Source: Chiloscyllium plagiosum (lineage: Eukaryota). Taken from it: DNA of 47,290 nucleotides. The notes under the pieces were generated by a model. The model was not told the DNA's origin. It searched no databases and worked only from the letters and a program-made list of their open reading frames with translations. The translations under genes were made by a program, and so were the position numbers. Below are positions 1-39,639 of the stretch, one piece after another. Every line of letters begins with the position of its first letter. Position 1 is the first letter of the stretch. The stretch is from contig NC_057759.1 in the NCBI RefSeq assembly GCF_004010195.1, forward strand, positions 6,307,255 to 6,354,544, given 5' to 3'.

Positions 1-379
1 GATGTAGCTGTGAATCTGTATTTGTCAACGTCTAGTTTATAAATGTGCAAATGCATTCACAGATTGTATCTGCCAGTGTTTTTGAAGTGTGTGTGGGGGT
101 TTGGGGTTGTGTGCTTAAGTATCATGCTCTCCCTTTCAGTTTCTACAGAGTGAATGTGTGAGAGCAGCTATCAATCACCGCCTGTCAGTTTTTGTTGTGT
201 CCACGTGAGAGTTCAGGAATTGAGCTAACCTTGTCAGTTTGTGCTGTGTGACTGAACGTCAAGTGCTGAATCAGTACCAGTCACTTTCAACTCTCATGCA
301 TCAAAAGTTGCTTAATTCGCTGACAGCCAATAATATTCTATGAGTCCAATGGTGACAAGGAATCTAATCTTGTTTGCCA

Positions 380-560
380 TCTGGTTCACTAATGTCCTTT
401 AAGGAAGGAAGCTGCCATCCTTACCTGGTCTGGCCTACATGTGTCTCCAGACCCACAGCAATGTGGCTGACATATAACTACCCCCTGGGAAGTTAGGGAT
501 GGGCAATAAATGCTGGCCTCGCCAGTGATTCTCTCATCCCATGAATGAATTTAGGAAAAA
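380..560 (+). mobile_element. SINE/LINE 3' tail fragment (common elasmobranch repeat)
   Basis: Ends GGGATGGGCAATAAATGCTGGCC..GCCAG...CCCATGAATGAAT plus an A-rich tail; the same tail type occurs at 14660-14730. Confidence 0.55.
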
Positions 561-3370
561 GAATTCTCTGTGACTGTGATTGATTCTGTGATAGATTTTA
601 GGGTGTTGTGATTTGGCCTTAATCTCTTCTGCATCATGTCATTTTTGGTAGAGTCACAGAATTGGTCCAGCCATTCAACCCTTTTGTGTCCAGACTGGGA
701 CATTCTGTTCTTCACCTATTCTCCATTCTAGTTTCCATTATCTGTTGGGATTCTGAATTTTATCCACTCACTGCCAGTATCTATCTAAATGCTAATTTGA
801 GATTATTCCTGCAGTTATCTGTCTTTGATAACTATAGTGCCAGTTATGTTCTGTGGGCAATAGCATCAGGTAGTGTTTGTGGATCTCGTTCTCTTTCCAC
901 GTTCAGTTGTGTTTTTTTGGTATGAGTGTTGGATAAACTTGATCAATATTCACTAACCTTTTGTGATTGAGGGATTAATGAATCTGAATTTTATTGCATT
1001 CAGACTTTTTAAATATATTTTGCGTATGCAGTAATCTTTATCAGTTGCTGCTGAACACTAAGATATAACATCTGACACTAACTGAAATGATTAATGCTTT
1101 GGTGAATCAATTTATAACTGTCCATATTTGGAAATACCTGGGCGTAAATTTCTTTTCTTTTCCCCTTTCAGCACTAACTGGCTGAGTGTGAGTGAGTTTT
1201 CTGTTGTGCTGCCAATCTGTATCACTTTAAAGGAGTGGCACTGGTCTATATCACACTGACACTTTTTTTATGTCGCCTTGTGTTTCCAGTTCTGCATGTC
1301 ATGATCTGGTACACTTTATAAGGTGGGTTTAATGCCTTATAAATCAGTGTTTCATATATTAAAAACGTATGGAAATGCTTCTGCATTACTCAGGTCCTCA
1401 ACCACAATGTGTGTGTGGAGAAAGTGTGTGTTCATCCACACCAGGCTCAGTGTGAGAATGAGATTCATTCACTCTCTGATACTAGATATCAATGTGCTCC
1501 TTATTCTTGGTTATTGTGTTTCACAGTGCTTCAGTGTCATCCAAATTGAAACATGTCACTTTTAGTAACTGCTACTGTACTTCAGTGTTCAAACTTGTGC
1601 TACTTGACATGAATGAGGTACTATCCATTGCCACTGGACTCAGCTCCTGTCTGTGAAAGTGAATGTGTTTGTATAACTGTTAATCTCTGGCACTGCACAT
1701 GTAGTTCGATAATGTCCACAGCCAATTTTCTTTAGCTTTCGTGCCTGTAGGATCCAGGGACAACTGAACATGCAACACATTGCAGCAGAAAAGCATCTGT
1801 GCTTTTCTTCAGAATCAAGGGGAGAAAAGCAATGGACTTTTGTAACTCCTATAGTGCAGAGTCTAACCGGGAACAATAGGGATATCAAGGTCTGGTTTTC
1901 AGAATGCTAACAATTTTTGCATTGTGACATGTATTCACCGAACCCATTTGCAACGAAGTAAACACTTCAACTGCATTCAAGCTGACTGACCACAGTGTTC
2001 CTTGTACAGGAAAGAGAATTGGCCAATTCTATTTTATTTACTAATGTGGACAGAATCTGGTGCAAGCCACTAGCAGACTCTTGTGTTGCTCTATGGTAGG
2101 GAGGGGAAAATCAAAAGGACTTTTATTTTCCACCATTCTGTGAAGAATAGTTCAATAAATTGAACTTAACAATTTAAATATCAACTTCTGTTGGAAAGAA
2201 AAATGAGCAGCTTGACAAACCGACCAATTTTGGCTTTCTCTTTCATGCTGCAATGATTTAAATAGTAATGATCTGATTCCAATGACTCCTTCAGAAAACT
2301 ATATCCTGATTCCTTGCTTTTTTTTGTACTATAATGAAGGGAGGGTCAAGAGGAATGCAGGGATCTTCATAGAAAATCAAAACGAATTTTGAAATACATA
2401 TAGAATAATTTTTAAAAAAACTTTCTTGCTGGAGAGAAAAATAAAATAACTACAAAATGATGAAATGGAGAATGAGGTTACGATACAGATGGAGATGACA
2501 GCTTCTCTGCTGCCATGATAGTTTTACGAAAATGGAATGCTGGTTGAAAGGAATTAGCATTGTTAGCTCAGTCAACTGTAATGTTGTTATAGACTGTCTT
2601 TGATCAGTCAGACTTAATAATTTGAAGAGACTTATTCTGTGCTGTAAGTTTCTTTGACTTGACATGAGAGTAGAAATCAGTTTGATGAAACGTTTTCTGC
2701 TAGTTGTGTATATGGATTTTCATTACTTTTGGATGTTGGAATGAGTATTTCAGGATGGCGTACAAATTTGCAACAATTGTCAATCAGTCAGTAGCTGTGT
2801 GTGAGAGAATGGTGTGTGTGTGCATATGTATGCAAGCACACATAAGAGGGTGGATTGGAGATGGTGGTTGTGTGTACATCAGGCTTTGGCTCAGAGGTTC
2901 ATTTGGAATTTACACTGTTTAGTTGTGCCTTTCACATAGGACTTCTATTTATCAAAAGATTAATTTTGCCCTTCTCAGTTACTGATAATGCCAAAGTTTC
3001 CTTCTATATCTTCAGAAATCCTTGCTGTAACAATGTAACAGAATGATCTGTTTGTTCACCTTGACTGTAACTTTAAAATTGCCTTCATTACATGTGGAGA
3101 TAATACAGTTCCTGAATGTATATTTCATAACAGGATACAATCTATCCCTCTTCTGATGTTGCAAATGATAATTGACTAAGCATCATGGCATTTATTGGAA
3201 ATGAGCTGTTGTGCATTGAGTATAGGGAGAAATCAAAAAAATATATTGCATCAGTTGTGTTTGACTCTTGGATTGAATGTATACTTCTGGAAATTAAGCT
3301 CAATGTGTATCTGACTCAATCCACTCTGACTGTGGAAAGGATGTTCTCCAATCTGACAACAATAACATAC

Positions 3371-3452
3371 CTGCTGGTTGTTAGAAGCAGCTGGTCACAC
3401 TTGGCTTTGTACTGAGGAAATATTACATTGTCTTGGTCCATAAATCATTTGC
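3371..3452 (-). other. Putative exon 2 (82 nt) downstream of element copy 1
   Basis: Acceptor CCCTCGTCTTCCTCCAG|G and donor CAG|GTATGT; the same sites are conserved in the paralogs. Confidence 0.5.
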
Positions 3453-3876
3453 CTGGAGGAAGACGAGGGATATTTCTTGTAAATCACCAACAGCTAAGTA
3501 GAAAGCTGATCGACTGATCAATGCAACATTCAGGTCATGATCATGATAATTCTGTTTTTAAACAGGGCAAGGTGAATAGTGCAAGGACTGGTTACACTCT
3601 AGCTCTGAGCTCCTCCCAGTCTTTTTTTTTCTGTTTGCGAAATTCCAAAACAATTTACTAAATTACAAAAGCTAACCAACATCTGCAAGTTCAATAGTCA
3701 GATCCCAATACATTAACTGTTGAAGGAAGAACAACAGGCACTACTCTCACATTTAGATATACTGTCCTTTAATTACCTACTATTCCATGTTTATTCGCAA
3801 CAAACAGCATGAAATAGAAGCCAAACAATGAAGTTCCATCAGAGTTTAGGTAATTAAAAACTACAAGAATGTCCGA

Positions 3877-4218
3877 CAGCAGCTTCTTCCCGCTCTGCCT
3901 CCCTCAGCAGGCCCACACACAGCCCGAGAAAGGCCTCTCTCTTCCCCCCAGCCCGCTCACTCCAAGTTCCGGGACCAGTTCCTGCTCCGCTCGGCCTCTT
4001 ACAAACAGCCCCCGGTTCTCCCTGAACTCACCCCGAATCAATCCCGGTCTCGGAGCCCCCTCTGTGTCCCAGGCTCCCATCCCGATGTGCTGTTGGAAGG
4101 AGCCTGCTGTTCCCTCGCTTCCCTGGGCGCTGATCTCTCCATTGCGGTCTGTTCCAAACAAACCTCTTACACTCACTGAGTAAATGCTCCTCAATGGCAG
4201 CGCTGGGGGAGGGCCTCA
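3877..4218 (-). other. 342-bp GC-rich conserved element, copy 1 (putative promoter/exon 1; donor GTGAGT at 4026-4031; NRF1-type motif at 4271-4281)
   Basis: About 6 mismatches versus copy 3 over 342 bp. Repeat status is certain; function is inferred. Confidence 0.6.
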
Positions 4219-4437
4219 AGCAATGCGTTCATCGAATTAGGAACAGCCAGCTTTGGAGGAAGGGCAGCATTGCGCATGCGCCTAAGGATGCAGGAATAAA
4301 TTATTCACATTAAACTGACTGTGACAGCAGCGGTGATAAATCCAGTGCAATATTGGGGATTGGGATTAAAGCACAAATTTCCAAAAAAGGGAATGTTTTC
4401 TCTAGAGCAGAGATGTCTGTAATGGGAACCGCTTTTT

Positions 4438-4530
4438 TCCTGATGAAGGGCTTTTGCCCGAAACGTCGATTTCGCTGCTCCTTGGATGCTGCCTGAACTG
4501 CTGTGCTCTTCCAGCACCACTAATCCAGAA
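4438..4530 (+). mobile_element. Penelope-type terminal-repeat fragment with hammerhead-like core
   Basis: CTGATGA-A-GGGC-TTTT-GCCC-GAAAC; same family as 27568-27798. Confidence 0.7.
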
Positions 4531-4544
4531 CCCGTGAATAAAGT

Positions 4545-4805
4545 ATAAACGATTTATGAGTGGGACAGGGTGAATAGAGAGAAGCTGTTTTCCTTGTTTG
4601 AGCGAGCAATCACAAGTAGTGCTTGGGTAACGATATGGTAAGCGTAAGGATTCTCGCTATGGTGAAGGGTTAGATATGAAGATATTGAGGGAATTTCAGG
4701 AAAATCTTTTCAGTGGTGGAAATCTGGAAGACACCGCATGCGAAGGTAGTGGAGGCCAGAAACCTTAACCTTTAAAAAGCATTTGGATGAGCACTTCAAA
4801 TGTCA
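4545..4805 (+). mobile_element. Old CR1 3' fragment
   Basis: Resembles the CR1 ORF2 end (GGTAGTGGAGGC...TTTAAAAAGCATTTGGATGAGCAC). Confidence 0.5.
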
Positions 4806-6792
4806 GTTCCGGAGCCACCATTCACGGTGGGATATGAACGGTGAATATCTCCCGAGGCAAACCAAAAAGAAACGTGTCTGTCTTTTGAGTACGAGGAGCA
4901 GATACACCTCACGATTGGCGGTCCATGCCTTTAGTTCTAGGCCTCGTAGACTCGAACCTGGGTCTCTGGCGCTGTTTTCTCCGATATCAGATTACAGTAA
5001 ATGGACCGAGATCAAACCTGAGCAGCTGCAGGACTGGGACAGCAAATGTGGAGTTTTTGCTGATGTCTGACCTTTCCAAACGCTGGGCGACATTAAAATA
5101 TTGTCTCAAGACGATTAATGAGCTCGGCCGGAAGAACGGTCTGTAATGTTTAATCAACATATCGGAGTGCTTTCAAAGTGTGAAATGAAGAGATTAATTG
5201 CAGATTGCAGTTCTTGGCGCTTGTTTTTGTTTCTGCCAGTTCTTCAGGTGTAGAAATAAAAGTAGAAAGAGATAGCTGCATCTAAGCAAATGAATGAGCG
5301 AGAGAGATTGTCTGAAGTATATATTTACAACCTAATTAACAAGTATTGATGAATTCCCCTCTGAACAACGTTCTTTTTAATACTTCATTTTTCTATGTAA
5401 AACATATCCCGTTATTTGTGAAATGGCGGGCTTTTCAAATTGGAAGGAAAGGTGTTGATGATTTGGCGCTGGCAGCAAGAGTAGAGAATGGGCTCTTGCT
5501 GCCAGCGGGAGCAGAGAATGTGCTCTTGCTTGCTGACTCTCGGGAGCATATTAAACACCAGTGAATCTGCCTTCTTTCCGTTTGCTGCTATTTGCTCAAG
5601 TCACTCTCTAATATTTGATTATTCCGGGAGCGACAAGCCCCGGTTGGGTGTGAGCCCTGAGTGTCACCACTGGGAAACAAAAGAAGTGCTCCTTTTCTTA
5701 CAGACCCACGGGTGGATAAATTACACATTTTTTTTTCATTTCCAAAACTCCGTGCGGGTTCTGTTGTGTTGCAGAATAGTATAAATGAGGCTTTCTGCTA
5801 TCGGTGAGAAGCTTGTCAAAATGAACAGAGATCAAGCCAGAACAGTTGCCGGACTGGAATTGTTAATGTGGAGCTTTTGCAATAAGGGAGCACGGTATTA
5901 AAATAAAACCTAAAGGCGGTGTTCGTTGTTAATGCGCTCACGCCGAAGAACATTCATGAAATCCTCACAGATTGAATGATGGTACTCACTCTCTCCGGAG
6001 ACAATCTCGAATGGTTCAAATAGCTTCTAGCCTCATTCATTTGCAATTTTTCTTTCGAGTAATGACTAAATACGAATGCTCCCTTCTCGGATCTACATTT
6101 CGGCAGGATTTTCAAATTTGAAAGAAAACGGTTGATGATTTGGCGCCATGTTTTCCCGCCTGCTTTCGCAGCAATGATCATGTAGTTACAGCTGGTAACA
6201 ACACCAAGGAAGACAGTGAGGACAGAGAGGATTTAATCCCGTATTAATACTGCACAACTCTAATGAAGCATGTGAAAGTTACATAACATTCACAGCATTG
6301 TATATTCTAATCTGTGTCTTCAACTAACTCCCCTGTAATGCATTACTGACGTCACACCCGTCCCCCTTTAATATCATTCAAAGCCATGTTCCAGCGTCTG
6401 CGATCGCTTGACTGGCGCTGTTACCTTGTTGTTTAACTGACTCCCCATCAATGTTTTACTCAGGCCCTGTGCACTTCGCAAATTACGATACCAATGTCCG
6501 CAAGTAAGAGTTCGATCTCTTGGTATCAAATCTTTCCCATCCCTAAAACGGCAAAATATATGAACACCGAGACAGAGAATTCGCGGGAATTTATAATCCA
6601 CTACCACAATGTCACGTTAAAATTATATTCCACAATCTGCCATAATAAATTGTGAACACGGGAGATTTCATTAGAAATGGAATACCTGCTCATGTCAACA
6701 TCGCTTACAACTCATTCCCTATTTATTTCCTAGTTTTATAACTACAATATAAATGTAACTAATCGCTTCCCGCTCTCTCTCGATGGTCTGGT

Positions 6793-6808
6793 GGCTCTGA
6801 AAAGAGCC
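6793..6808 (-). terminator. Histone 3' stem-loop of H3 (GGCTCTTTTCAGAGCC) with downstream purine-rich HDE (about 6771-6780, AGAGAGAGCG)
   Basis: Exact consensus 16-nt stem-loop on the minus strand, followed by ACCA, 70 nt after the stop codon. Confidence 0.97.
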
Positions 6809-6878: not shown

Positions 6879-7316
<438 letters not shown>

Positions 7317-7352
7317 TTACTACTGTCAATGCTGAGGGTGCTGCGGTGCTGC

Positions 7353-7519
7353 TTATTTAAGGGAATGGAGAGCCCGCCCTAGAGCTGGGATTGGATACAG
7401 CCCTGTCCCTCAGCCCACAGAGAAACATCTGCGGAAGGTACAGAAAGTGCAGGAAAAGAATTGTTGGAATCTGATTGGTTCACTGGAAATGACAGTTGGT
7501 CAATTTCAAAATACCCGCC
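7353..7519 (-). promoter_or_regulatory. H3 promoter: TATA-like TTAAATAA (7353-7360), GC box (7373-7379), CCAAT boxes (7390-7394, 7474-7478), CDE/CHR-like GGCGG-N4-TTTGAA (7505-7519)
   Basis: Motifs read directly. Order and spacing are typical of H3 promoters, and most are retained in the paralogous remnant at 34660-34840. Confidence 0.8.
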
Positions 7520-7626
7520 GAATTCACCCTCACAAACCTTGAGATTAAAGTAACCATTAAAACGCAAAACACCATCCGTCTGCAACTAAGATAGAATTTA
7601 ATATTTTATAGTAACTCTTTAAAACC

Positions 7627-7823
7627 ACTTAAAAATCACACAACACCAGGTTATACTCCAACGGTTTAATTGGAAGCACACTAGCTTTCGGAGCGTCGCT
7701 CCTTCATCAGGTGAGCGTCGCTCCGAAAGCTAGTGTGCTTTCAATTAAACCTGTTGGACTATAACCTGGTGTTGTGTGATTTTTTAACTTTGTACACCCC
7801 AGTCCAATACCGGCATCTCCGAA
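7627..7823. mobile_element. Palindromic Penelope-type short element with 11-bp TSD TCTTTAAAACC (7616-7626, 7824-7834)
   Basis: Inverted arms of about 70 bp. Minus strand reads CTGATGAAGGAGCGACGCTCCGAAAG. Absent from the paralogous site near 34560. Confidence 0.8.
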
Positions 7824-8040
7824 TCTTTAAAACCTAGTCAGCAGTCAGCGCGGACAGGAGGCGGGATCATTGCCTGATCTGTCTGTAACAGGCAGGAGGA
7901 AAGGCGGGGTTTAAAACAGCCCAGGCAAAATGAACAACCGAACGTTTACCCGCCGTGAATCGATCTAAATAACCGCGCCAATTTAAACATCTTAAAAGCT
8001 AATGCAGTGTACACCGATAAAAAGACAGAATCTCACTTTA

Positions 8041-8334
8041 TGGTTAGATTACCCTCAGTGTGGAGACAAGCTCTTCGGCCCAACAAATCCACACTGACGC
8101 TCCGAAGAGCAACCCCACCCAGACCATTTCCCCTACATTTACCCCTGACTATTCCATCTAACACTATGTGCAATTTAGCACAGCCAATTTACCTAACATG
8201 CACATCTTTGGACTGTGGGAGGAAACCGGAGCACCCAGAGGAAATCCACGCAGACTCGGGAGAATGTGCAAGCTCCACACAGTTGTCCCTGGCGCTGAGG
8301 GAGCAGTGCTAGCCACTGAGCCACCGTGCCGCTC
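8041..8334 (-). mobile_element. HE1-like (V-SINE) tRNA-derived SINE
   Basis: Head GCGGCACGGTGGCTCAGTGG, V-domain GGTTTCCTCCCACAGTCCAAAGATGTG, tail AATCTAA. Absent from the paralog near 34350. Confidence 0.85.
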
Positions 8335-8705
8335 CTGTTTTCTTTGTATTGTAATTAGCCCGAAGACAATGTGGAATTATTGCCTGAACTGTCTGCAACA
8401 GGCAGATGGAAGGAACACGCCATGAAAACATCCGCACGGTCTCAGAATCAAAACTGAACAAAGTAACATTCCTGAACGGGTCAATGAAATACAAACACTA
8501 CAATATGTCACATGCGTGACTCGGTAGAGTTATAAGTCGCGAAGTGAAATAACCAGATGGAGATCAATAAACCCTCTCTATATACCTTCCCGATTCACAG
8601 GTCTCCACTCTCGTAAACCATGGCATGTGTGTATTCGAGTTATTCAGATCAATTAATATCTAAGGTAGGGTTGCGCTCGGCGCCGGGAAACATTGGATCC
8701 GGGCT

Positions 8706-8746
8706 CAGCTCTTTCCCGAGAGATGTGGGTGGCTCTGATAAGAGCC
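8706..8746 (-). terminator. Histone stem-loop (GGCTCTTATCAGAGCC, 8731-8746) and HDE (AAAGAGCTG, 8706-8714) of H1 copy A
   Basis: CCCAAA-stemloop-ACCCA context and a canonical U7-pairing HDE. Confidence 0.95.
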
Positions 8747-8782
8747 TTTGGGTTCAGATGGTTACACGCTACACTGACTGGT

Positions 8783-9493
8783 TCATTTCTTTGCTGCTGT
8801 CTTGGTCACTTTCGCTTTGGGCTTGGCCTTGCCTTTAGCCAGTTTGCTGAGGGGTTTGGGGGCTTTAGGGCCCTTGATCTTTTTCACCTTCTTCACGGGA
8901 GTCCGTTTCTTTGGCGCTGCTTTGCTCACCGCTTTCTTTGGGGGTGCCGGCTTCTTACCGCTCGCTTTCTTGGCTGGGGATTTCTTGGCTATTGCTTTCT
9001 TGGCTGGGGATTTCTTGACTGTCGCTTTCTTGGCCGGGGATTTCTTGACTGTCGCTTTCTTGGCCTGGGATTTCTTCGCTGTCACCTTCTTGGCCGGGGA
9101 TTTCTTCACGGCCGATTTCTTGGCGGCCGCTGATGTTCCCGCCTTCTTTCCCGCTTTTGCCTTGACCGGATTCTTTGGGAGTTTGAAGGAGCCGGAGACG
9201 CCATGGCCCTTGACCAGAACAAGGGAGCCGTTCGCCAGGCACCTCCTGATACTCATCTTGATCTGTGCCTTTCGCTTTCCCACATCGATCCCGCTTCTCT
9301 CCAGCCCCTTCTTTACAGCGGACAGAGACGCCCCTTTGCGATCCTTGATATCCTCGACAACCTTCAGAATCAGCTCTCCCAATCCGGGACCGGGTGTTTT
9401 TTTCCTGGGAGCCGCCGCCTTCTTCTTGGGAGCCTTTTCTTTGGTGGGAGCGGAGGCTGGAGGAGCCGTTTCGGCGGCTGCACTGTCGCTCAT
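8783..9493 (-). CDS. H1: Linker histone H1, divergent subtype, copy A (236 aa)
   Basis: N-terminus MSDSAAAETAPP, winged-helix globular domain ending KGHGVSGSFKL, K/A/P-rich tail with KKSPAKK repeats. ATG at 9493, TGA at 8783-8785, stem-loop downstream. Confidence 0.97.
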   Translation of the reverse strand: MSDSAAAETAPPASAPTKEKAPKKKAAAPRKKTPGPGLGELILKVVEDIKDRKGASLSAVKKGLERSGIDVGKRKAQIKMSIRRCLANGSLVLVKGHGVSGSFKLPKNPVKAKAGKKAGTSAAAKKSAVKKSPAKKVTAKKSQAKKATVKKSPAKKATVKKSPAKKAIAKKSPAKKASGKKPAPPKKAVSKAAPKKRTPVKKVKKIKGPKAPKPLSKLAKGKAKPKAKVTKTAAKK

Positions 9494-9584
9494 GTTGAGA
9501 ACTCTGCGCTGAATCTCTCTCTGAGTCAGTCTGAACTGGGTCAGCAATGAAGCTGTTGGCGGCGGCACTGAGCAACTTCAAGGC

Positions 9585-10001
9585 AGCGAGCGGACGGCGC
9601 AGGGACAACCTGCCGTCAGCTCCTGATCCTGCTGCTTTTCTGTGTTTCTCTAACGGCCTAAACTCTCCGATTCCTCTGAAATTCCGCATCTCCAGTGAAC
9701 CAGGCTCGATCGCTCCTGACCCAGACAAGGGAAGGTTTGCGACTGAAAAGTTTTGACTCGAATAGATGGCTCTGCTGTCGAGTTAAACGCATTTTGCTGC
9801 CGCACAGATCGAGCTCTTTGAGCTGAGCGCTGACATTGTCGGTACTTTTAGACTGAAATCTTGAAATCAACGAACACATTGTCCTAAATTCTACCTTTGG
9901 GGTCTAGTGGGGGAGACGGGGAATAAGTTGAATAGAAAATGTTTTTGATTTTCACAAGAGAGACCCAGAAATATCATAATATTCACGGACACACAAACAC
10001 A
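9585..10001 (-). promoter_or_regulatory. H1 copy A promoter: H1/AC box AAACACA (9641-9647), upstream TG box TGTGTTT (9995-10001), CGTCCGC H4-site-II/HINFP-like motif (about 9590-9596)
   Basis: Motifs read directly and conserved in copy B at identical TG-to-AC spacing. Confidence 0.8.
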
Positions 10002-10189
10002 GTTACGTTCGACGAACCGTCCGCCCTTTTCCGACAGCCTCTCTGACACAATATTCACATTCACACAGTCACACGCCAGAAATATCACCAAATGTAAGTG
10101 TGGAAGGATAGAATGTCTCATCCTTTCAGCGTTTGCTGCGGTGTCCAGGGAGTTAGTTGTAGTTTTTCTCCTCAGTAACTGTTACACTC

Positions 10190-10640
10190 TCATCAGCTCC
10201 ACTGTTTACATCCTCAAAGATGGCCAGTCGGTTTGTCAAGCTTAGAAGACAGAACAGTGTGCACTGGAACATGGCCTTCATACCTATGCTGATTCTAGCA
10301 GATCCTGAATACTGTTTTGTCAAATGCTTCGCAATTGAAGCTTTCATTTTGATTTTTTCCCTGCAGGCTGACTGGTCTATAGTTCACAATTTTATGCCTA
10401 CCTCCCTTTTCCATTGGATTGCTTACACTACCGAGCCCCCAATCTGTGTAAATTATTGCAGAGCTTATAGAATCTTGGAACATGACCATCACTGCATCCA
10501 GTATTACTCAGCCCACTACATTAAATACTCTGGGACTTAGATGATCAAGGACTGGTGTTTCCCAACCTTCAATCCCGTCCACTGTCCCAACATCATTTCC
10601 CAAATATACTGATTTAGTTCAGTTCTTCCCTCTCACTAAA
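10190..10640 (-). mobile_element. Old CR1 ORF2 fragment (paralog about 32090-32530, +)
   Basis: NYRPVSL and KAFDK-like motifs on the minus strand. Confidence 0.65.
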
Positions 10641-11488
10641 CTCACCAATATCACTACTGTGTTAGTTGTGTGAACATTTGTGAACAGAGAACAATAATAT
10701 GTTAGCAATTTTTGAGACATTTTCGTTCCCATTTTGAACTTCCCTCTTTAATGTTGTAAGTGGCATGTGGTCCTCTTTACCAACCTATTTATGTTCATTT
10801 CTCTCTTTACACATTTATTAGTGTTTTAGCAGTTTTTTTAAAAAATGGTTTCGACAACATTACTCTTTTCTTCATTTGTTCTTTGTTAGTTAAATCCCTT
10901 TTCGCAGTCATTTGCTGAATTTGGATCAGTTTGCAGCCTTCCCGTCTTGCTATATTTCCTCCCAAATTGTAGGCCTTTTCTTTGGACCAAAAACTATCTT
11001 AAGTAGTCGTTTCAAGTTTCACAACATTCTTTTTATAGGAGAGAGACCAGAATTGCACATAATATTCCAAAAGTGGCATTACCAATGTTCTGTATACCCA
11101 TAACATGTTCTCCTAAGTCACATACTCAAAGCTCTGACCAGTGAAGGAAAACATATCAAATACCTTCTTTGCTATCCTACCTGACTATAACTCCATGTTC
11201 AAGTAACAACGAACCTGCATTTCAACGTTTCTTTGTTCAGCAACACTCCACAGGACCTTTATATTAAGTGTGTAAGTCCTGCCCTGATTTGCCTTTCCAA
11301 TTGCAGCACCTCATATCGATTTAAATTGAACTCAATATGCCACTCCGGGGTCCAGTGGCCCATCTGATCGAGATCCTGCTGTATCCTGAGGTAGCCTTCT
11401 TTGCAGTTTAGTACACCTATAATTTTTGTGTAATCTGCAAACTTACTAACAATACCTGCAACCTCACATCCAAATCATTCATAATAAT

Positions 11489-11680
11489 GTGGAGGTGCCG
11501 GTGCTGGACTGGGGTGTGCAAAGTTAAAAATGAGACTCCACCAAGTTATACTCCAAAGCTTGTATTTGGAAGTACACGCTTTCTAAATACAGATACCTGA
11601 TGGAGGAGCATTACTCCGAAAGTTTGTGCTTCTAAATAAACCTGTTGGAATAAAACCTGGTGTTCTGTCATTTTTTAAAC
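11489..11680. mobile_element. Palindromic Penelope-type element nested in CR1 and shared with the paralog (about 31050-31242)
   Basis: Same family as 7627-7823; CTGATGGAGGAGC...CTCCGAAAG. Confidence 0.72.
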
Positions 11681-13859
11681 TAAAATCATTTATACAAATG
11701 ATGAAAAGCAATGGACTCAGCAGTGATCCTTGTAGCACATCAATTGTTACAGGCCTCCAGTCTGAAAAGCATCCCTCCAACACCACCCTCTGTCTTCTAC
11801 ATTTGAACAAGTTCTGTATCCAAATGACTAGTTCTCCCTGTATTCCATGTGATCCAATCTTGCGAACCAATTTCCCATGGGGAACCTTGTCAAACATTTT
11901 ACTGAAGGCCATATAGATCACATCCACTACTTTGCCCTCTCAGTTATCAATTCAAAAAAAACTCAGTCGAGTTAGTGATACAAGACTTTCCACACAGAAA
12001 GTCATGTTGACTACCCCTGATCAATCCTGGCCTTTCAAAAGATGTAATCCTGTCTCTCACAATCCCCTCAACTGTTTGCCTACTGTTGATGTTATGCTCA
12101 CTGTTCAATAGTTCCCTGGCTTTTCCTTACCACCTTTCCTAAATAGTGGCACCACATTAGCCAGCCTCCAGTCTTTTTGCACTTCACCTGTGACTATGGA
12201 TGATACAAATATCTCAGCAAGGGGCCCAACAATCACTTCCCTAGCTTATCACCATGTTTCAGGTCCACCTGATTGGGTGCTCGTGCTTTATCCACCTTTT
12301 CTGTTTAAAATCATCCAGCAGCACCTCCTCTGCATTATGGATATTTTTAAAGATGTCACTATCTGTTTCCCCATGTTCTGTATCTTCCATTTCCTCCTCC
12401 TCAGTAAGGACTCGCTTAGTATCTCCCATTTTTCCTTTTCTTCCACACATAGGCTGCCTTGCTAATCTTTGCTGGGCCCTCTTCTTTCCCTGGTTACCTT
12501 TTTGATCTTCATGTATTTATAAAATCTATTTGAATTCTCCTTAAAACTATTTGCCAAAGGTATGTTATGTCCCTTTTTTGCCCTCCTCATTTCCTTCTCA
12601 AATATATCCCTATTGCCTTTATACTCTTCAAAGGATTCACTCAACGTCTCCTGTATTTAAGTAACATATGCTTCCTTCTTGTTTGGACCAAAACCTCAAC
12701 TTCTTTTCTCATGCAGCTCTTCCTACACCTACCAGTCATGCCTTTCACCCGAACAGGAACATCCTGTCTCTGTACCCTCATTTTCTCATTTTTGAAGGCT
12801 TTTCATTTTTCAGCCATCACTTTGCCTGTGAACATCTGCCCTCAGTCAACTTTTGAAAGTTTTTGCACAATACTCTCAAAATTGGCCTTCCTCCAAATTA
12901 GAAATTTAACATTTAGATCTGGTCTATCCTTTTCCATCAGAGTTTTAAAACTAATAAAATTATGGTCGTTGGCCCCAAAGTGCTCCCCCACTGTCACATC
13001 ATTACATCACAAGAGTAGGTCAAGATTTTCACCTTGTCTAGAAGATTCATTCACATACTGAATCATAAACTTTTCTTGCACACACTTTCTGTCTAAACCA
13101 TGAACAATATGGCAGCCATAATCCATGTTTGGAATGTTAAAATCCCTCACCATTATTCCTGCAGATCTAAGATCTCCTGACAAATTTGTTTCTCAATTTC
13201 CTGCTGACTGTTAGGATGTCTACAATCCAATCCCAATAAAGTGATTAAACCCTTTATTATTTCTCATTTCCATCCAAATAATTTCCATGGAATATCCTCC
13301 CTCAGTAAAGGTGAGATCTTAACTCTTACCAAACATGTCACTCCCCATTTTCTCTTGCGGACCCCTCCCCCCATCCTTCCTATAACATTTGATTCCTGGA
13401 ACATTAAGCTGCCAGTTGTGTCATCCCCAAACCATGTCTCTGTAATTGCTATGATATCCCAATTCCAATCCCATTTTCTTAACCATGTCCTGAGTTCATC
13501 CTCCTTCCCTGTTAGGCCTCTTGCATTGAAATAAATGCAGTTTAAGTTATCAATCCAACCACATTCTCTGCTGTGTTCCTGTCTGCCCTGGATGTTTGAC
13601 TTACCGATTCGCCAGCCTCAGATTGATATCTTTGTTCACTATCTCCCCGGTTCCCACTGACCTCACCCCACGCTCACACCTTACGAGTTTAACCCGTCCC
13701 CAGTAGCTCAAGAAAATGTCCCTGGCAATATAGTGGATCCCTTCCAATTCAGGTGTATTCCATCCTTTTTCTACAAGTCATGTCTTCCCCAGAAGAGATT
13801 CCAATTATCCAAAAGTTTGAAGATCTCTCAAATTGAACCCCTTCACCGCCCGTGTAGGT

Positions 13860-14101
13860 GGGCAGCACGGTGGCACAGTGGTAAGCACTGCTTCCTCACA
13901 GCGCTCGAGACTCGGGTTCAATCCCCGCCTCAGGCGACTCTCTGTGTGCAGTTTGCACGTTTTCCCCGTGTCTGCGTGGTTTGCTCCGGGTTCCTCCCAC
14001 AATCCAAAAATATGAATGTAGGGGAATGGGTCTGGGTGATTTGCGCTTCAGCGGGTCGGTGTGGACTTGTTTCCACGCTGTAAATAATCTAATCTAATCT
14101 C
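13860..14101 (+). mobile_element. HE1-like SINE
   Basis: A box TGGCACAGTGG, B box GGTTCAATCC, (AATCT)n tail. Absent from the right arm near 28310. Confidence 0.85.
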
Positions 14102-14509
14102 TCCCCTGCTCCTGAGTTGGGCATTCCTCTGCTCTATCATCCTATTCCTACCCTCAGTCGTTCGTAGCAGCGGGAGTAATCTAGATATTACTACCGGAGA
14201 TCTTGCCTCTCTTCCTTATTCTTCCTTCGGAATCTCATCCCTTTCCCTTCCTGTGTAGTTAGTTCCAACGTGTACGCCCCTTTGTGAATATCCTGCACTC
14301 TCTCCGAGATATCCTTGATCCTGACACCAGGGAGACAACACACTATTCTGATTTCACGCTATCGGCCAGAGAGACGTCTGTCTGTGCCGCTGACAAAGAG
14401 ATTCGAGTTTTGTAATTTGTAAAAGGAGGACCTTCGAAATCGCAACTACTTCCATCTAAAAGGATAAAGGCAGCTGATGTCAGGGAACACGGCCTTAATG
14501 TCGGACAAG

Positions 14510-14730
14510 TTCCCCTCTAAGGCACTCACCATGCTGACTTGGAAATAAAACCACTTTCTTTCACTGTCACTGGATCAAGACCCTGGAACTTCTTATTCAT
14601 GGCATTGTGGGCAGCACATGGACAACAGCTGCTCCAGAAGGTGGCTCACCACCGCCTTCTCAAAGGGATGGAGAATAAATGCTTGGCTCAGCCAGCGACA
14701 TCCACGTTCCAGGAGTGAATAAACAAAAAC
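14510..14730 (+). mobile_element. LINE 3' end fragment (paralog about 27422-27870, -)
   Basis: WNS-like codons followed by the AATAAATGCT..GCCAGCGAC tail. Confidence 0.55.
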
Positions 14731-15376
14731 AGCTGGGGTCTCTCGTTGTGGCATACAATACATCACAAGGTTTCTATCTGCAGCATACATGACACTAAAA
14801 TCTGTCATTCACGATAAACTAAATCGAGTCCCAGAGATGTTATTGCACACCTAGTCTGACTTTTCCACGGGCCTCCTGACCCAGAAATAAGCTCTGACAC
14901 TGTGATGCAAGACTCTCTCCATCAGTTATTTTCTGCCTTCGTAAGAATGGTCCACTTATTCCCTCTCTCTGTATGATACTTTGGGCAAGGAGTTAAGATT
15001 AGTGGATATGGGGTCAGCAGGATTAAATACCACAGTTAACATTCGATCAGATGTGATGTTATCGAATGGGGGAGCACAGAGAATGGGCCGAGTGGCCGCC
15101 ACCTTCCCCGCCCCCTGATCAGATTGTGAGAGAGCCGGAGGGAGGAGTTATTAACATTACCCGGGAATGGGACAATGTCCCAGCTTGAAACGTTCTCTGC
15201 CCTTTCCCCCACAGCCCCAGTTCCTTTGGTCAAACTGGGAGAAAAGGGAATTGGGGAAATGACCAATTGATATTTGTTTTTTCGGGGAGTTTTTGGGAAA
15301 ACATCGCATGCGCAATACCTCATCGCACCCTCGCCTCCTCCAATACTGATTGTTCCCGACTAGAGGAGCGCATGCG

Positions 15377-15717
15377 TGAGGCCCTCCCCCAGCGCTGCCA
15401 TTGAGGAGCATTTACTCAGTGAGTGCAAGAGGTTTGTTTGAAACAGACCGCAATGGAGAGATCAGCGCCCAGGGAAGCGAGGGAACAGCAGGCTCCTTCC
15501 AGCAGCACATCGGGATGGGAGCCTGGGACACAGAGGGGGCTCCGAGACCGGGATTGATTCGGGGTGAGTTCAGGAGAATCGGGGGCTGTTTGTAAGAGGC
15601 CGAGCGGAGCAGGAACTGGTCCCGGAACTTGGAGTGAGCGGGCTGGGGGGAAGAGAGAGGCCTTTCTCTGGCTGTGTGTGGGCCTGCTGAGGGAGGCAGA
15701 GCGGGAAGAAGCTGCTG
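15377..15717 (+). other. Conserved element, copy 2 (donor GTGAGT at 15564-15569; NRF1-type motifs at 15304-15314 and 15368-15377)
   Basis: Reverse complement of copies 1 and 3, with a 1-bp deletion near 15574. Confidence 0.6.
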
Positions 15718-16212
15718 TGGGACATTCTTGTGGTTTGCAATCCCATAAACACGGATGGAAATTCATTGTTTGGCTTCTGTTTTACGCTGTTTAATGCGAA
15801 TAGACATTGAAATAAAAGACAGTAGAAACAAATGCGATAATCCTGTGTAGGATAAATATAGCAGGCACCGGATAAACGTCTCCATGTGAAATCATGCCTC
15901 GTATTTGTTTTTCAACAGTTAATAATGTATTGGGAGCTGGACACTGAACTGTGTACTCATCCCATTTGAGGAGATGTCCATATGTTGTTGAGTTTATTTT
16001 ATCTCACTGAAATGTTTTAGAATTTGGGAAACAGAAAAAAAACTGGAAGGAGCTCAGGGCTCGAGTGGAACCAGGATCCGCACTGTTCACCTTGCCCTGT
16101 TCAAAAACAAAGAATTATAATGATCATGACCTGAATATTGCATTGATCATTTGATATCTTCCTACTCAGCTGCGAGTGATTTACCGGAGCTCTCTCTTTT
16201 GTCTTTCTCCAG

Positions 16213-16267
16213 GCAAATATTTGATGGATCAATCCAAAGGTGACCAGCTGCTTCTCACACCCAGCAG
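16213..16267 (+). other. Putative exon 2 (55 nt) downstream of element copy 2
   Basis: Acceptor CTCTCTCTTTTGTCTTTCTCCAG|G and donor CAG|GTATAT. Confidence 0.45.
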
Positions 16268-16949
16268 GTATATTACCACTGTCGGAGAGGAGAAGGTCCT
16301 TTCCACTGTCTGAGTGGATTGAGTCACCCAGACATTGAGCTCCATTTCCAGAAGTACACATTCAATCCAAGAGTTAAACACAACTGACGATATATAAATG
16401 TATATTATTTTGCCCTGCTCTCAGTGCTTACCACCTCAGTGACAGTAAATTCCATTATTCAAAGCCAATTATCATTCATAAGATTAGAAGCAGGTTAGAC
16501 TGTATGCTTATAATAAATACACATTTATGAACTGCATTAAATCCATATGTAGATTTGGCATTTTTAAAAATTACAATCAATTTGAACAAACCGATCATGG
16601 TGTTACATGGTTATAACAAATATAAATATGAAGTGTATATTTGAGTGCAGATATAGAAGCAATGTTGGATATTTGAGTAATTGAGCAGGACAAAATTGTT
16701 CCAGGATTTGAACATCTTTCCTTCAGTAAGGTGTCTAGAACAGAACAAAACCAGCCTGGGTAACAGAAGGCCAACTCCCTTTGTCAAATGTATTTCTAAA
16801 TTCAGCTTCTGTTGCCTGTAAGGTGTAACACACATACAAAGAAATACCCAACAGAACAAAGATGCATCTCCAACATGATCTAATATTCTCCATTCAATAC
16901 TTGTGCTGTCACCGGAATTAATTTCTTTTCTGCTCTCCGCTTTGTATTA

Positions 16950-17130
16950 GGTGTTGGACTAGCTCAGTTGGCTGGATGGCTAGTTTGGAATGTGGAGTAA
17001 CATCGATAGCATACGTTTGAATCTCTCACTGGCTGAGGTTACCATGAAGGCCTGTCCTTCCCCACCTCTCCCTTTGTCTGAGGCATGATCACTCTCAGGT
17101 TAAACCACCATCTATCAGTTGTCACTCTCT
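16950..17130 (+). mobile_element. tRNA-derived SINE, decayed
   Basis: A box TAGCTCAGTTGG, degenerate B box GTTTGAATC, body GGCTGAGGTTACCATGAAGG...CAGGTTAAACCACCA. Confidence 0.55.
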
Positions 17131-17517
17131 CTCCCTCTCTCTGACACTCCAGGTGAGGTCTAACAAGTGTCTTGTACAAGTTCAACATCACCTCCCTGTT
17201 CTTGGACTCTAGGTCTGATTAATGAAGCCAAGGATGCTGTGTTTTTTATTAACCCCTCTCCCCCGGTTATGCCACCTTCACTGATCTGTGCACATAACCC
17301 CAGCTCCCTCTGTTCCAGCTCACTACCTTTAGAATTTTAACCCTTACTTTGTATTGTCTTTCCATTTCATTCATCCAATGTCCTTCACCAAATTTGTATT
17401 AAATCAATTTTTGTCTTTATTTTCTGATGTTGACGAATTAAAACCTATTTTGTAAGTCAAACTTCATTTTCTCCCTCCTAGTCATTTTGTTTCATTTCCT
17501 TGCTACTAACTAACAAA

Positions 17518-17798
17518 ACAATTCTGGTCTCCTTCCTATCGGAAAGATGTTGTGAAACTTGAAAGGGTTCAGAAAAGATTTACAAGGATGTTGCCAGGGT
17601 TGGAGGATCTGAGCTACAGGGAGAGGCTGGACAGGCTGGGGCTGTTTTCCCTGGAGTGTCGGAGGCTGAGGGGTGACCTTATAGAGGTTTACAAAATTGA
17701 GGGGCAAGGATAGGACAAATAGGCAAAGTCTTTTCCCTGGGGTTGGGGAGTCCAGAACTAGAGGGCATAGGTTTAGGGTGAGAGGGAAAAGATACAAA
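17518..17798 (+). mobile_element. Young CR1 ORF2 3' part running into the gap
   Basis: QFWSPSYRKDVVKLERVQKRFTRMLPGL...RRLRGDLIEVYKI. Confidence 0.9.
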
Positions 17799-18298
17799 NN
17801 NNNNNNNNNNNNNNNNNNNNNNNNNNNNNNNNNNNNNNNNNNNNNNNNNNNNNNNNNNNNNNNNNNNNNNNNNNNNNNNNNNNNNNNNNNNNNNNNNNNN
17901 NNNNNNNNNNNNNNNNNNNNNNNNNNNNNNNNNNNNNNNNNNNNNNNNNNNNNNNNNNNNNNNNNNNNNNNNNNNNNNNNNNNNNNNNNNNNNNNNNNNN
18001 NNNNNNNNNNNNNNNNNNNNNNNNNNNNNNNNNNNNNNNNNNNNNNNNNNNNNNNNNNNNNNNNNNNNNNNNNNNNNNNNNNNNNNNNNNNNNNNNNNNN
18101 NNNNNNNNNNNNNNNNNNNNNNNNNNNNNNNNNNNNNNNNNNNNNNNNNNNNNNNNNNNNNNNNNNNNNNNNNNNNNNNNNNNNNNNNNNNNNNNNNNNN
18201 NNNNNNNNNNNNNNNNNNNNNNNNNNNNNNNNNNNNNNNNNNNNNNNNNNNNNNNNNNNNNNNNNNNNNNNNNNNNNNNNNNNNNNNNNNNNNNNNNN
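17799..18298. other. Assembly gap (500 N)
   Basis: N run. Confidence 1.
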
Positions 18299-22390: not shown

Positions 22391-22909
22391 GCTGTGAATT
22401 ATAACAATTATTGGCAAATGGGGTGATGTACATAAAGAATGGAGAGAGAAAAAAAAAATGTAATTCCTCCGAGGTAGTTGACTCTTGATTTGAAAATTTC
22501 TCTCTGGAAACTGAGTCAACGTGTGTTGAATTCAATCTGCTCTGTAACTGTGGAAAGGATGTTCTTCAGTCTGACTGCAGTAACATACCTGTTGTTTTTT
22601 AGAAGGAACTGATCACACTTAGCTTTGTACCAAGGACATATTACACTGTCTTGGTCCTTCAAGTAATTGTTTGGTGGAAGACAGAAGAGACATCGTCTGT
22701 AAATCAACATTAAGTCAATGAAATAATTTAATAATCATCAGGCTGTTTTTCCTTCAAGACAGCAATTCCAACAGGACCACAGGGCTGATTCTATTCTTGG
22801 CCTGAGCTGCTCTTTAGTGATTGTATCAAAACATTCTGTACCAATTCACTGAGAACCAATACTAACCAACACCTCTACAAATGGGATAATCTGATGCCAG
22901 TGCGTGTCT

Positions 22910-24790: not shown

Positions 24791-24798
24791 TCTATTCA

Positions 24799-26444: not shown

Positions 26445-26499
26445 CTGCTGGGTGTGAGAAGCAGCTGGTCACCCTTGGATTGATCCATCAAATATTTGC
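26445..26499 (-). other. Putative exon 2 (55 nt) downstream of element copy 3
   Basis: Acceptor CTCTCTTTTGTCTTTCTCCAG|G and donor CAG|GTATGT. Confidence 0.5.
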
Positions 26500-26992: not shown

Positions 26993-27334
26993 CAGCAGCT
27001 TCTTCCCGCTCTGCCTCCCTCAGCAGGCCCACACACAGCCCGAGAAAGGCCTCTCTCTTCCCCCCAGCCCGCTCACTCCAAGTTCCGGGCCCAGTTCCTG
27101 CTCCGCTCGGCCTCTTACAAACAGCCCCCGGTTCTCCCTGAACTCACCCCGAATCAATCCCGGTCTCGGAGCCCCCTCTGTGTCCCAGGCTCCCATCCCG
27201 ATGTGCTGCTGGAAGGAGCCTGCTGTTCCGTCGCTTCCCTGGGCGCTGATCTCTCCATTGCGGTCTGTTTCAAACAAACCTCTTGCACTCACTGAGTAAA
27301 TGCTCCTCAATGGCAGCGCTGGGGGAGGGTCTCA
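26993..27334 (-). other. Conserved element, copy 3 (donor at 27142-27147; NRF1-type motifs at 27334-27343 and 27382-27392)
   Basis: Direct repeat of copy 1. Confidence 0.6.
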
Positions 27335-33214: not shown

Positions 33215-33895
33215 ATGAGCGACAGTGCAGCCGCCGAAACGGCTCCGCCAGCCGCCGCTCCTACTAAAGCCAAGGCTCCCAAGAAGAAGGCGGCGGCTCC
33301 CAGGAAAAAAACACCCGGTCCCGGGTTGGGAGAGCTGATTCTGAAGGTTGTCGGGGATATCAAGGATCGCAAAGGGGCGTCTCTGTCCGCTGTAAAGAAG
33401 GGGCTGGAGAGAAGCGGGATCGATGTGGGAAAGCGAAAGGCACAGATCAAGATGAGTATCAGGAGGTGCCTGGCGAACGGCTCCCTTGTTCTGGTCAAGG
33501 GCCATGGCGTCTCCGGCTCCTTCAAACTCCCAAAGAATCCAGTCAAGGCAAAAGCGGGAAAGAAGGCGGGAACATCAGCGGCCGCCAAGAAACCGGCCGT
33601 GAAGAAATCACCGGCCAAGAAGGTGACAACGAAGAAATCCCAGGCCAAGAAAGCGACAGTGAAGAAATCCCCAGCCAAGAAAGCGATAGCCAAGAAATCC
33701 CCAGCCAAGAAAGCGAGCGGCAAGAAGCCGGCACCGCCAAAGAAAGCGGTGAGCAAAGCAGCGCCAAAGAAACGGACTCCCGTGAAGAAGGTGAAAAAGG
33801 CCAAGGGCCTTAAAGCCCCCAAATCCCTCAGCAAACCGGCTAAAGGCAAGGCCAAGCCCAAAGCGAAAGTGACCAAGACAGCAGCAAAGAAATGA
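33215..33895 (+). CDS. H1: Linker histone H1, divergent subtype, copy B (226 aa)
   Basis: Paralog of copy A, with about 9 aa substitutions and one fewer 10-aa tail repeat. ATG at 33215, TGA at 33893-33895. Confidence 0.97.
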   Translation: MSDSAAAETAPPAAAPTKAKAPKKKAAAPRKKTPGPGLGELILKVVGDIKDRKGASLSAVKKGLERSGIDVGKRKAQIKMSIRRCLANGSLVLVKGHGVSGSFKLPKNPVKAKAGKKAGTSAAAKKPAVKKSPAKKVTTKKSQAKKATVKKSPAKKAIAKKSPAKKASGKKPAPPKKAVSKAAPKKRTPVKKVKKAKGLKAPKSLSKPAKGKAKPKAKVTKTAAKK

Positions 33896-37960: not shown

Positions 37961-39639
37961 GTGAATAACTATACTCTCATGTTGCAGAATCTGAGAAGTA
38001 CAGGTTGATAGCTACAGTCACACAACCTGACAGGAAATGAATAAATACATTCAAACCCTGACATTACAGCACCTGACAAGAAGGATTGATAATTAAACTC
38101 TTATTCACAAAGCAGAAACTGATAGTGACAGATGAAAGCTCAGCTCACACATTCACATAGCATAAACTGGCAGGAATTGACAATTATACAGACATATTCA
38201 CCAAGCAGAAACTGACAATAATAGATTGATAACTATATTTATGTATTCACACAAGAGTTTGAAAAGTGCAGATTGACAATTACAGTCTCACTTTGACAAA
38301 GAAGAAATTGACAGGTAGACAATGATAACTATACTAGTCACATATTGACAGGGACAGATTGGTATTGACTCTTTCAAATTGACGTGGTAGAAACAGATTG
38401 ACAATGACACTCTGGTGTCAAATAGCAAAACCTGACAGGTACTGTTTGATAATAGCACTGAGAAATTGATTATAGCTAAAACTGACAGGTGGAGATCAAT
38501 GTCTACATTCACACAGAAGATACTGACAGGTACAAATTGATGACAGCATTTAATATTCATACAGCAGAAACTGGCAGGGAAATACTGAGAATGACACACC
38601 CGTTCTCAAAGCTGAAACTGACAGGTTCAGGTTGATAACTACACTGTCAGATACACAGCAGAAACTGTTAGGGAAAGATTGTTAAGTAAATTCACACATT
38701 CACAACGGCAGAAACTGACAGGTATATATTGAGAACTAAACTCACATCCCCATCAGTGAAGCACACAGGGACTGATCCTATTTATTTAAAATGTATTTAT
38801 CAATCAATCAATCACTCAGTCTCTGCCAGTTTCTACTATGTGGATATGAGTTCAGTTATCAATCTATACCTGTCAGTTTATGCTATGTGAATGTAGTTAT
38901 CAATCTGTCCCTGTCACTCTCTAATTGGACATTGCAGAGAGTGACGGGGAGAGACTGATAACTATATTAACTCTCACATTTGCACGGCCTATACTGACAG
39001 GTACAGGTTGACAGCCGTACTCCCACATTCACCTCGCAGGAACTGACAGGTATGGATTGATTAGGAAACTCTCAGATCCTGATACAAACTTGTATTGGGT
39101 AGCCCCATTGTGGAGCTGTAGAGGTGTTGGTTAGTAGCTGGAGAGGTGTTGGTTAGTAGCTGGTTCTCAGTGAATTGGTATAGATTTCTTTTGTTACAAT
39201 CACTAGACAAAGAGCAACTCGGGCCAAAAATGGAGTCAGAACTGTAGTTCTGTTTGAAATGCTGGTTTGAAAGAAACACAGCCTCATAATTTTAAAATGA
39301 ATATTACATTAAGTGAATTTGACAGTATCAAACCTTTCAATGTTGATTTACAGGAGATGTCTCTTCTCTCTTCCTCCAGACAATTACATGAAGGAGCAAG
39401 ACACGGTACGAAACCAAGTGTGATCAGATCCTTCTAACAAACAGTAGGTGTGTTATCATTGTCAGACTGAAAAACATACTTTCCACAGTCACAGAACAGT
39501 TGAATTAGACACACATGGAACTCAATTTCTAGAGAGAAGTTTTCACAAGGATAGTCAAATACCACCAAGCAATTTTTTTTTTAATCCTTCTCCATTCTCA
39601 ATTCACATCATCCCATTTCCAATAAATGTATCATTCACA

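Follow-up and report, generated by a model that had tools for sequence, protein, structure and literature searches.

A spliced, likely non-coding transcript family with a near-invariant 5' module among histone genes of Chiloscyllium plagiosum

Vertebrate lncRNAs normally drift fast, and the transcribed units that stay base-invariant over many copies are mostly tRNAs, snRNAs and rRNAs. Genes for tRNAs and for the U1 and U2 snRNAs also occur in vertebrate histone clusters. The element described here was found three times in a 47,290-nucleotide stretch of the C. plagiosum genome, which was analysed as a whole and is called the window below. It resembles the tRNA and U1/U2 snRNA genes in being a near-invariant transcribed unit with many copies, diverged flanks and an edge at the transcription start, located among histone genes. 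Unlike them, it has no Rfam or ARAGORN match, is spliced and probably polyadenylated and has no visible snRNA-type 3' box; its conserved block crosses a splice donor into the intron, and no discrete 3' end is shown. Invertebrate spliced-leader RNA genes combine a constant exon in many copies with a splice donor and a conserved intron start, and are, to our knowledge, not known in vertebrates. The element shares this layout, but its exon is much longer, its acceptors lie in cis and no Sm site was seen.

Two further systems are partly comparable. In the available part of the source (PMC5701461), the upstream region and first exon of SIGLEC11 and SIGLEC16 are 97-99% alike between the paralogs, and the rest is more diverged. 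That case concerns ~2 kb in two protein-coding genes, whereas the element has 342 bp, about 30 likely non-coding copies, a consensus that does not change between organisms, and an edge at the start. The lncRNA hosts of snoRNAs, such as GAS5, and small-RNA hosts with repeated exons are also highly expressed and alternatively spliced, and have short exons, a pyrimidine-rich start and an upstream ORF, according to the accessible text of PMC4233243 and PMC6789762. Unlike in these hosts, no hosted small RNA was found here, and it is exon 1 and the beginning of the intron that are conserved rather than cassettes within introns. The literature searched, with subscription papers and supplements outside its scope, yielded no published description of the element, the available portions of PMC10620051 and PMC11602149 contain nothing on it, and as far as searched it is undescribed. 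RefSeq may already list the loci as uncharacterised lncRNAs.

Three sharply bounded copies in duplicated histone blocks

The three copies (341-342 bp, copy 2 inverted) have the coordinates given by the first-pass annotation (Table 1), and its count of about six differences per pair was confirmed and also holds for copies 1 and 2. Copies 1 and 2 differ by five substitutions and one gap, copies 1 and 3 by six substitutions, and copies 2 and 3 by five substitutions and one gap, corresponding to pairwise identities of 98.2-98.5%. Each copy has exactly three private changes; all nine changes in the window are private and none is common to two copies. In the left flank (3340-3876), identity is 77.6% (copies 1 and 2), 77.9% (1 and 3) and 88.6% (2 and 3). 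The earlier estimate of 70-80% for the flanks therefore applies to copies 1 and 3 and is too low for copies 2 and 3 (about 89%). The abrupt loss of identity at both edges was reproduced in a three-way scan per 20 columns, in which the identical columns rise from 13-19 to 20 at 3880 and fall to 12 at 4220, with steps at about 3877 and 4219. At the divergence of the flanks, the binomial probability of six or fewer differences is 8e-27 (copies 1 and 2), 2e-23 (1 and 3) and 4e-11 (2 and 3). Such local identity, far above that of the flanks and with sharp edges, is characteristic of gene conversion. Copy 1 is homologous to the other two copies over about 2878-4281 and also over 840-1450. With a GC content of 61% and a CpG observed/expected ratio of 0.48-0.54, the core is a weak CpG island; the proposal of a CpG-island promoter was thus right about the promoter-proximal, transcribed position but overstated the island.

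Table 1. Positions of the module copies, exons, signals and neighbouring genes in the window
Feature	Position	Strand	Basis
Module copy 1, from the approximate transcription start through exon 1 to ~155 nt into intron 1	3877..4218	-	98% identity to copies 2 and 3; minus-strand RNA reads and joints
Copy 2 of the module; exon 1 ends at 15563; 1-bp deletion in the intron part	15377..15717	+	
Copy 3 of the module; exon 1 ends at 27148	26993..27334	-	
Main form of exon 1; its 5' end is approximate, RNA depth dropping at about 4205-4222	4032..4218	-	Spliced reads; donor GTGAGT at 4031
Alternative upstream donor GTGAGT	4171..4176	-	Joint 3439-4176 in X15 contig, depth 73.7
Alternative downstream donor GTGAGC, within the conserved 'intron' part	3955..3960	-	Joint 3440-3961 in X15 contig, depth 126.8
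Intron 1, GT-AG, 579 nt	3453..4031	-	Joint 3451-4031 'CT..AC' in X21 (5 reads) and X15; acceptor and donor sequences
Exon 2 of copy 1, 82 nt (copies 2 and 3: 55 nt), of a repeated, diverged exon family	3371..3452	-	RNA depth peak 3338-3453; loose ends 3370/3371; alignment of five units
Exon 2 of copy 2, 55 nt, AG/GT intact	16213..16267	+	Sequence alignment
Exon 2 of copy 3, 55 nt	26445..26499	-	X21 reads joining this exon type to exon 1
Unit resembling exon 2 that lies downstream of copy 3 in the same sense and has no exon 1 of its own	22581..22700	-	
Unit resembling exon 2; no exon 1 for it lies in the window	39414..39456	+	
Intronic AATAAA (3795-3790) and poly(A) site near 3752, unspliced isoform	3752..3795	-	15 X21 reads, T-run loose end
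NRF1-type palindrome, about 55-60 bp upstream of the core	4271..4280	.	Motif scan, alignment; also at 15305 and 27382
34-codon upstream ORF of exon 1, its stop 6 nt ahead of the main donor	4038..4142	-	Translation
Three-way junction predicted for the 5' end of the RNA, with 28 pairs; G-U pairs occur in its two 8-bp hairpins	4127..4203	-	Folding z, pair probabilities
Histone H3 gene	6879..7289	-	ORF; 3' stem-loop at 6808
Histone H1 gene, head-to-head with copy 2 at about 5.9 kb	8783..9493	-	ORF; stem-loop
Histone H1 gene, head-to-head with copy 3 at about 5.9 kb	33215..33895	+	ORF; PF00538 relatives in Chiloscyllium and Hemiscyllium

The block 7285-16678, with an H3 promoter, H1 and copy 2, is an inverted duplicate of 34905-26055, with an H3 promoter, H1 and copy 3, the two being about 85-89% alike; copy 1 is part of an older sister block. 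Since copies 2 and 3 sit in inverted duplicate blocks, the inverted arrangement around H3 and H1 is accounted for by block duplication, and the idea that the element as a unit brackets a histone cassette is not supported. The observation that no gap interrupts the H3-H1 interval between copies 1 and 2 stands, as the N runs of the window lie at 17799-18298 and 24799-25204. In all three copies, transcription is directed away from the closest histone genes. Between the duplicated blocks, H1 coding DNA is 97% alike (21 of 681 nt differ), which is not significantly different from the core of copies 2 and 3 (Fisher p=0.30). By best matches, the H1s closest to the two H1 proteins of the window are those of bamboo and epaulette sharks, namely Chiloscyllium punctatum, Hemiscyllium ocellatum and C. 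plagiosum (overall 91%, 89-90% and 86%, respectively); neither window protein has an exact counterpart in the protein collection searched. In an H1 tree the paralogs cluster loosely by species with low support.

Several side observations were made on the histone genes and repeats. The H1 subtype is expanded in hemiscylliids, and its tail length shifts in steps of a 5-residue repeat (196-236 aa; window 8783-9493 and 33215-33895; proteins P0004-P0018). Whereas the H3 stem-loop at 6808 is canonical, those 3' of H1 (8731-8746 and 33932-33947) have an unusual loop and fit the pattern on either strand. In the second block, the H3 promoter copy (34575-34905) stops exactly at the expected H3 start codon and is followed by no H3 coding sequence; beyond 34905 the sequence is retroelement-like, with a weak zf-RVT match at 35593-36000. 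Three single annotated proteins of Stegostoma tigrinum (P0026, P0027 and P0050) consist of an H1 N-terminal/globular part fused to an H3 core in several copies and may be real recombinants or annotation artefacts. We take the segments 4436-4520, 24698-24782 and 27605-27794, the last an inverted pair, to be short hammerhead-like end fragments of Penelope type. A degenerate, internally repetitive block with a period of about 45-50 bp (22365-24359 and 37778-39667; 36286-38916) occurs in inverted copies that adjoin the orphan exon-2-like units.

A spliced transcript that begins in the element

Four of the 24 listed sequencing runs, one per organism label, were compared over 2700-4430: X21, X10, X15 and X17. 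X21 consists of raw single-cell poly(A) reads; 291 were placed from 12,955,460 records, which make up about 2% of the run. The contigs of X15 and X17, presumed to be RNA, are represented by their longest pieces, and Logan contigs lose rare variants. Transcription with canonical GT-AG splicing, as expected of a Pol II lncRNA, was observed in the raw reads of X21 and in the contigs of X15 and X17.

Over the element, almost all X21 first mates lie on the plus strand; the transcript is the minus strand of copy 1. Five listed joints, found in 38 X21 reads, connect 4028/4031 with exon-2 sequences at 3398-3451, and the joints are also present in X15 contigs. The element covers the 5' portion of a spliced transcript: its transcription start, an exon 1 that has three alternative donors, and the first part of intron 1. 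At the 5' identity edge (4218-4222), RNA depth falls from 34.1 to 2.0 in X21 and from 744 to 11 in X15. This collapse at 4207-4222 indicates that the 5' identity edge approximately coincides with the transcription start; exact 5' or 3' RNA ends were not called from the reads and contigs over 2700-4430. A group of 24 loose ends at 4064 was rejected as a start, as the attached sequence, which we take to be adapter, lies at a G-run and points to a template-switch artefact. Upstream of the core lies a palindrome that is presumably an NRF1 motif, and a second, degenerate palindrome adjoins the core edge.

The second exons joined to exon 1 come in many variants of 55-82 nt, and joints that 'go back' by 55-70 nt indicate chains of exon-2-type exons. 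At 3786-3875, about 60% of the X21 reads have copy-1 letters; hence a copy-1-like locus is itself transcribed. Other reads have a copy-2/3 type of exon 2. Organism A (X21), with this share of copy-1 flank letters, may be the same species as that of the window. The loose end at 3752 lies 38 nt past the AATAAA; the library was poly(A)-selected, and internal priming is possible for these 15 reads.

Around exon 2, X21 reads of the opposite strand at 2990-3221, with a depth of 3-7, point to antisense or convergent transcription of a paralogous locus, and an X15 contig of depth 274 carries exon 2 on to about 3025 as a terminal exon. A block of the intron at 3500-3600, 50-150 nt upstream of the exon-2 acceptor, is 86-96% conserved, above the rest of the flank, and contains a small palindrome; no snoRNA boxes were recognised in it.

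Coding potential, known RNA families and predicted fold

The three copies of the 34-codon ORF differ by two non-synonymous and no synonymous changes, and in C. punctatum P0002 its ATG is missing. The short ORFs of the element carry no coding signature: synonymous changes are not in excess, exon lengths are 55 and 82 nt, and copy 2 has a 1-bp deletion. A protein search with the open minus frame returned only three ab initio models of C. punctatum and four weak repetitive matches. One of these models, P0001, is identical at 39/39 residues over exon 1 and uses the same donor, and by eye agrees at 21/36 residues over exon 2. None of five element-related proteins matches Pfam, and exons 1-2 and the window contain no conserved ORF, the full-length RNA reaching beyond these data. 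The transcript is likely non-coding.

The first-pass annotation had recognised no known structural RNA in the element, which is borne out by Rfam (no match at the gathering score in the whole window) and ARAGORN (no tRNA genes). With E up to 5-10, Rfam gave chance-level matches over 1-6800 and 14800-28000, with E=3.9 near the element. An Atlas comparison reached a best score of 0.80, which is at chance level, and scanning metagenome and viral contigs for exact motifs gave a single chance match of 19-20 bases in each. Resemblances to H/ACA RNA, telomerase RNA, 7SK, LTRs and L1 promoters were dropped by eye, as the defining motifs are missing.

The first ~107 nt of the RNA are predicted to fold better than shuffled sequences (z of -2.7, -3.3 and -2.9 for the three copies, with 1-3 of 200 shuffles as good), and 27 of the 28 pairs of the predicted three-way junction have a probability of 0.97-1.0. 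One of 25 overlapping windows stands out in the fold scan. The whole 356 nt are no better folded than shuffles (z -0.30 and -1.10), and neither are the intron part (z +0.34) and the 3' half of exon 1 (z +0.93). The copy-1 changes in the junction are one loop change and one G-C to G-U; one change in copy 3 and one in C. punctatum would disrupt predicted pairs. As the opposite strand of the 5' region scores alike (z -2.7), the copies are non-independent and no compensatory change or covariation occurs among the three copies, the predicted junction is taken as a lead only.

Constancy across organisms and its possible causes

Core words are present at a fraction of 0.50-0.80 in 20 of the 24 listed runs (8 studies, 4 organism labels); for a sequence identical to the window consensus the fraction would be 0.75. 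X10, with 1,916 million letters of contigs, is a run whose kind is not on record; it is likely genomic, because there are no spliced joints among those listed. It contains one 334-nt contig over 3876-4206 with a depth of 176.8, compared with 2.7-15.2 (median 5.3) for seven other listed pieces; loose ends occur at 4222 and, with many contigs, at 3875. As a rough inference from contig depth there are about 30 copies, summed depth being no copy number proper. The X10 contig differs from copy 1 at three positions (4093, 4154 and 4169), all of them copy-1-private sites at which copies 2 and 3 agree on the other letter, and equals the window consensus at 331/331 aligned sites. An X15 contig over 3912-4057 has no differences from copy 1, the X17 contigs agree as well, and the consensus letter is found in 60/63, 44/44 and 38/38 of the X21 first-mate-plus reads. 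The core consensus is thus identical in organisms B, C and D and in the window, the organisms being given by coded labels only. Listed flank pieces of X10, X15 and X17 are 90-98% alike, and these best matches may be paralogs; at a dozen flank sites the copy-1 letter is found in no X10 contig. Species-specific derived variants common to paralogs were not found, the consensus being the same across labels and all nine window changes private. According to the accessible part of PMC13100897, dS between whale and zebra shark is 0.06-0.11 over ~50 million years. At such a shark clock, the flank distances of 11-22% point to old duplications, and the constancy of the core would accordingly be long-lasting.

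The explanation we favour, with moderate confidence, is a multicopy, spliced and probably polyadenylated, likely non-coding transcript whose first ~340 bases are kept by purifying selection and were probably spread by gene conversion. Selection is suggested by the cross-organism identity, the private nature of all window changes and the edge at the start site. A contribution of conversion is suggested because old and young copies are equally distant, and because selection alone would have difficulty in keeping 84 purely intronic bases fully constrained when there are 30 redundant copies. The first-pass annotation had left the choice between selection on an RNA or regulatory element and a conversion tract at a promoter; it was right about a promoter-proximal transcribed unit and missed the exon-intron structure, and the consensus identity now favours selection over neutral conversion alone.

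Neutral, promoter-focused conversion acting alone would make the G-rich stretch after the start a break- or R-loop-prone hotspot among ~30 paralogous promoters. The equal pair distances (6, 6 and 6) despite a two-fold difference in flank age (flank distances of 22, 22 and 11%) agree with this, although such counts have little power to separate conversion from selection; so does the transcript-strand GC skew of +0.30, which reaches +0.45 within the intron part. According to the available part of PMC5519329, the cartilaginous fish sampled have PRDM9 orthologs that either are partial or show a weak SSXRD domain, which could direct recombination to promoters. Moreover, sharks evolve slowly (PMC13100897 and PMC10587355, both as far as accessible), so that consensus sequences could lag behind. 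Neutral conversion was simulated with 30 copies, a Kingman genealogy, 1.75% mean pair distance and 600 runs a point. The probability of no consensus difference was 0.185, 0.08 and 0.008 at species distances of 0.5, 1 and 2%, respectively, and 0/600 at 3% or above. The absence of any consensus difference to organism B at the 331 sites thus argues against conversion alone (P <=0.008 at 2%), and purifying selection is likely if the species are at least 2% apart. Three further points speak against it: all nine changes are private, the tract stops at the start although a promoter hotspot would convert upstream too, and the SIGLEC11/16 paralogs, in the accessible text of PMC5701461, cluster by species with boundaries that vary between species. 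We regard conversion alone as possible but rather unlikely.

The module could also be the shared 5' leader of a protein-coding multigene family, e.g. of zinc-finger type, with coding exons beyond the window, in gaps or in intact members. An ATG is present in exon 2 of 4/6 units, copy 1 and copies 2/3 differ there by an in-frame indel of 27 nt, and 53 X21 reads continue past the exon-2 donor into sequence outside 2700-4430. These points are outweighed by the lack of a RefSeq-type protein with the exon-1 peptide, by a window that has neither a C2H2 pattern in six frames nor an unexplained long ORF, and by alternative acceptors and exon lengths that scramble the frame; a 5' UTR would also leave the invariance of the 84 purely intronic bases unexplained. 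A coding leader therefore appears improbable.

Quite improbable, too, is a host transcript for intronic small RNAs of the snoRNA- or miRNA-array type, in which the short repeated exons would serve as spacers. Repeated short exons, a pyrimidine-rich start, an upstream ORF and alternative splicing are shared with snoRNA hosts (PMC4233243 and PMC6954239, in their available parts), and the block at 3500-3600 is somewhat better conserved. In such hosts, however, the conserved part is the small RNA and not exon 1; Rfam gave no match above chance, intron 1 has by eye no canonical C box, and no hairpin common to the units was found in a scan of 404 windows from five downstream regions, with 12 shuffles per window.

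A young transposon insertion or an assembly collapse would also account for the high identity and sharp edges, but both flanks are homologous in all three copies, which indicates an inherited site, there is no target-site duplication, each copy has private changes, and independent organisms show the same contrast between core and flank. Of what the first-pass annotation named as able to overturn its reading, neither a transposable element with target-site duplications nor flanks as alike as the core were found, and collapse was judged unlikely; we consider this explanation very improbable.

Known spliced leaders are far shorter than ~190 nt. A spliced-leader-like donor, whose invariant exon and intron start would be trans-spliced onto other RNAs, is hardly credible: the constant exon, 5' splice site, conserved intron start and many different acceptors would suit it, as would 15 X21 reads that join exon 1 to sequence absent from the window (two loose-end motifs from RNA reads are absent at up to 3 mismatches), but the exon has ~190 nt (~35-45 nt in the shortest form, via the donor at 4176), no Sm-type site is seen by eye in the intron part, and the partners listed belong to the paralogous exon-2 units, which every copy has in cis, 580 bp further downstream.

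If the transcript family is indeed maintained by purifying selection with the help of conversion, each copy would be driven by a Pol II promoter of housekeeping type with two NRF1-like sites. The working part would be the 5' module, i.e. the predicted three-way-junction fold and, after it, a stretch rich in G and in 5' splice sites, and the downstream exons may be disposable tails. The 34-codon upstream ORF would expose the spliced RNA to nonsense-mediated decay. About 30 copies would provide dose, selection would purge variants, and conversion would keep old and young copies equally close. More speculatively, about 30 histone-cluster loci of carpet sharks might release or present the same ~340-nt module, with its three-way junction and splice-site-rich G tract, from sloppy spliced precursors. 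This would be a dose-amplified structured RNA under snRNA-like, near base-by-base constraint, with the histone locus or a common protein partner as its target; we put this forward only tentatively.

A Pol II family whose first 340 bases, intronic ones included, are frozen over about 30 copies with flanks 11-22% apart, and in related sharks, would represent either a new functional RNA or promoter module in the histone locus or an unusually clean instance of gene conversion that is bounded by the transcription start.
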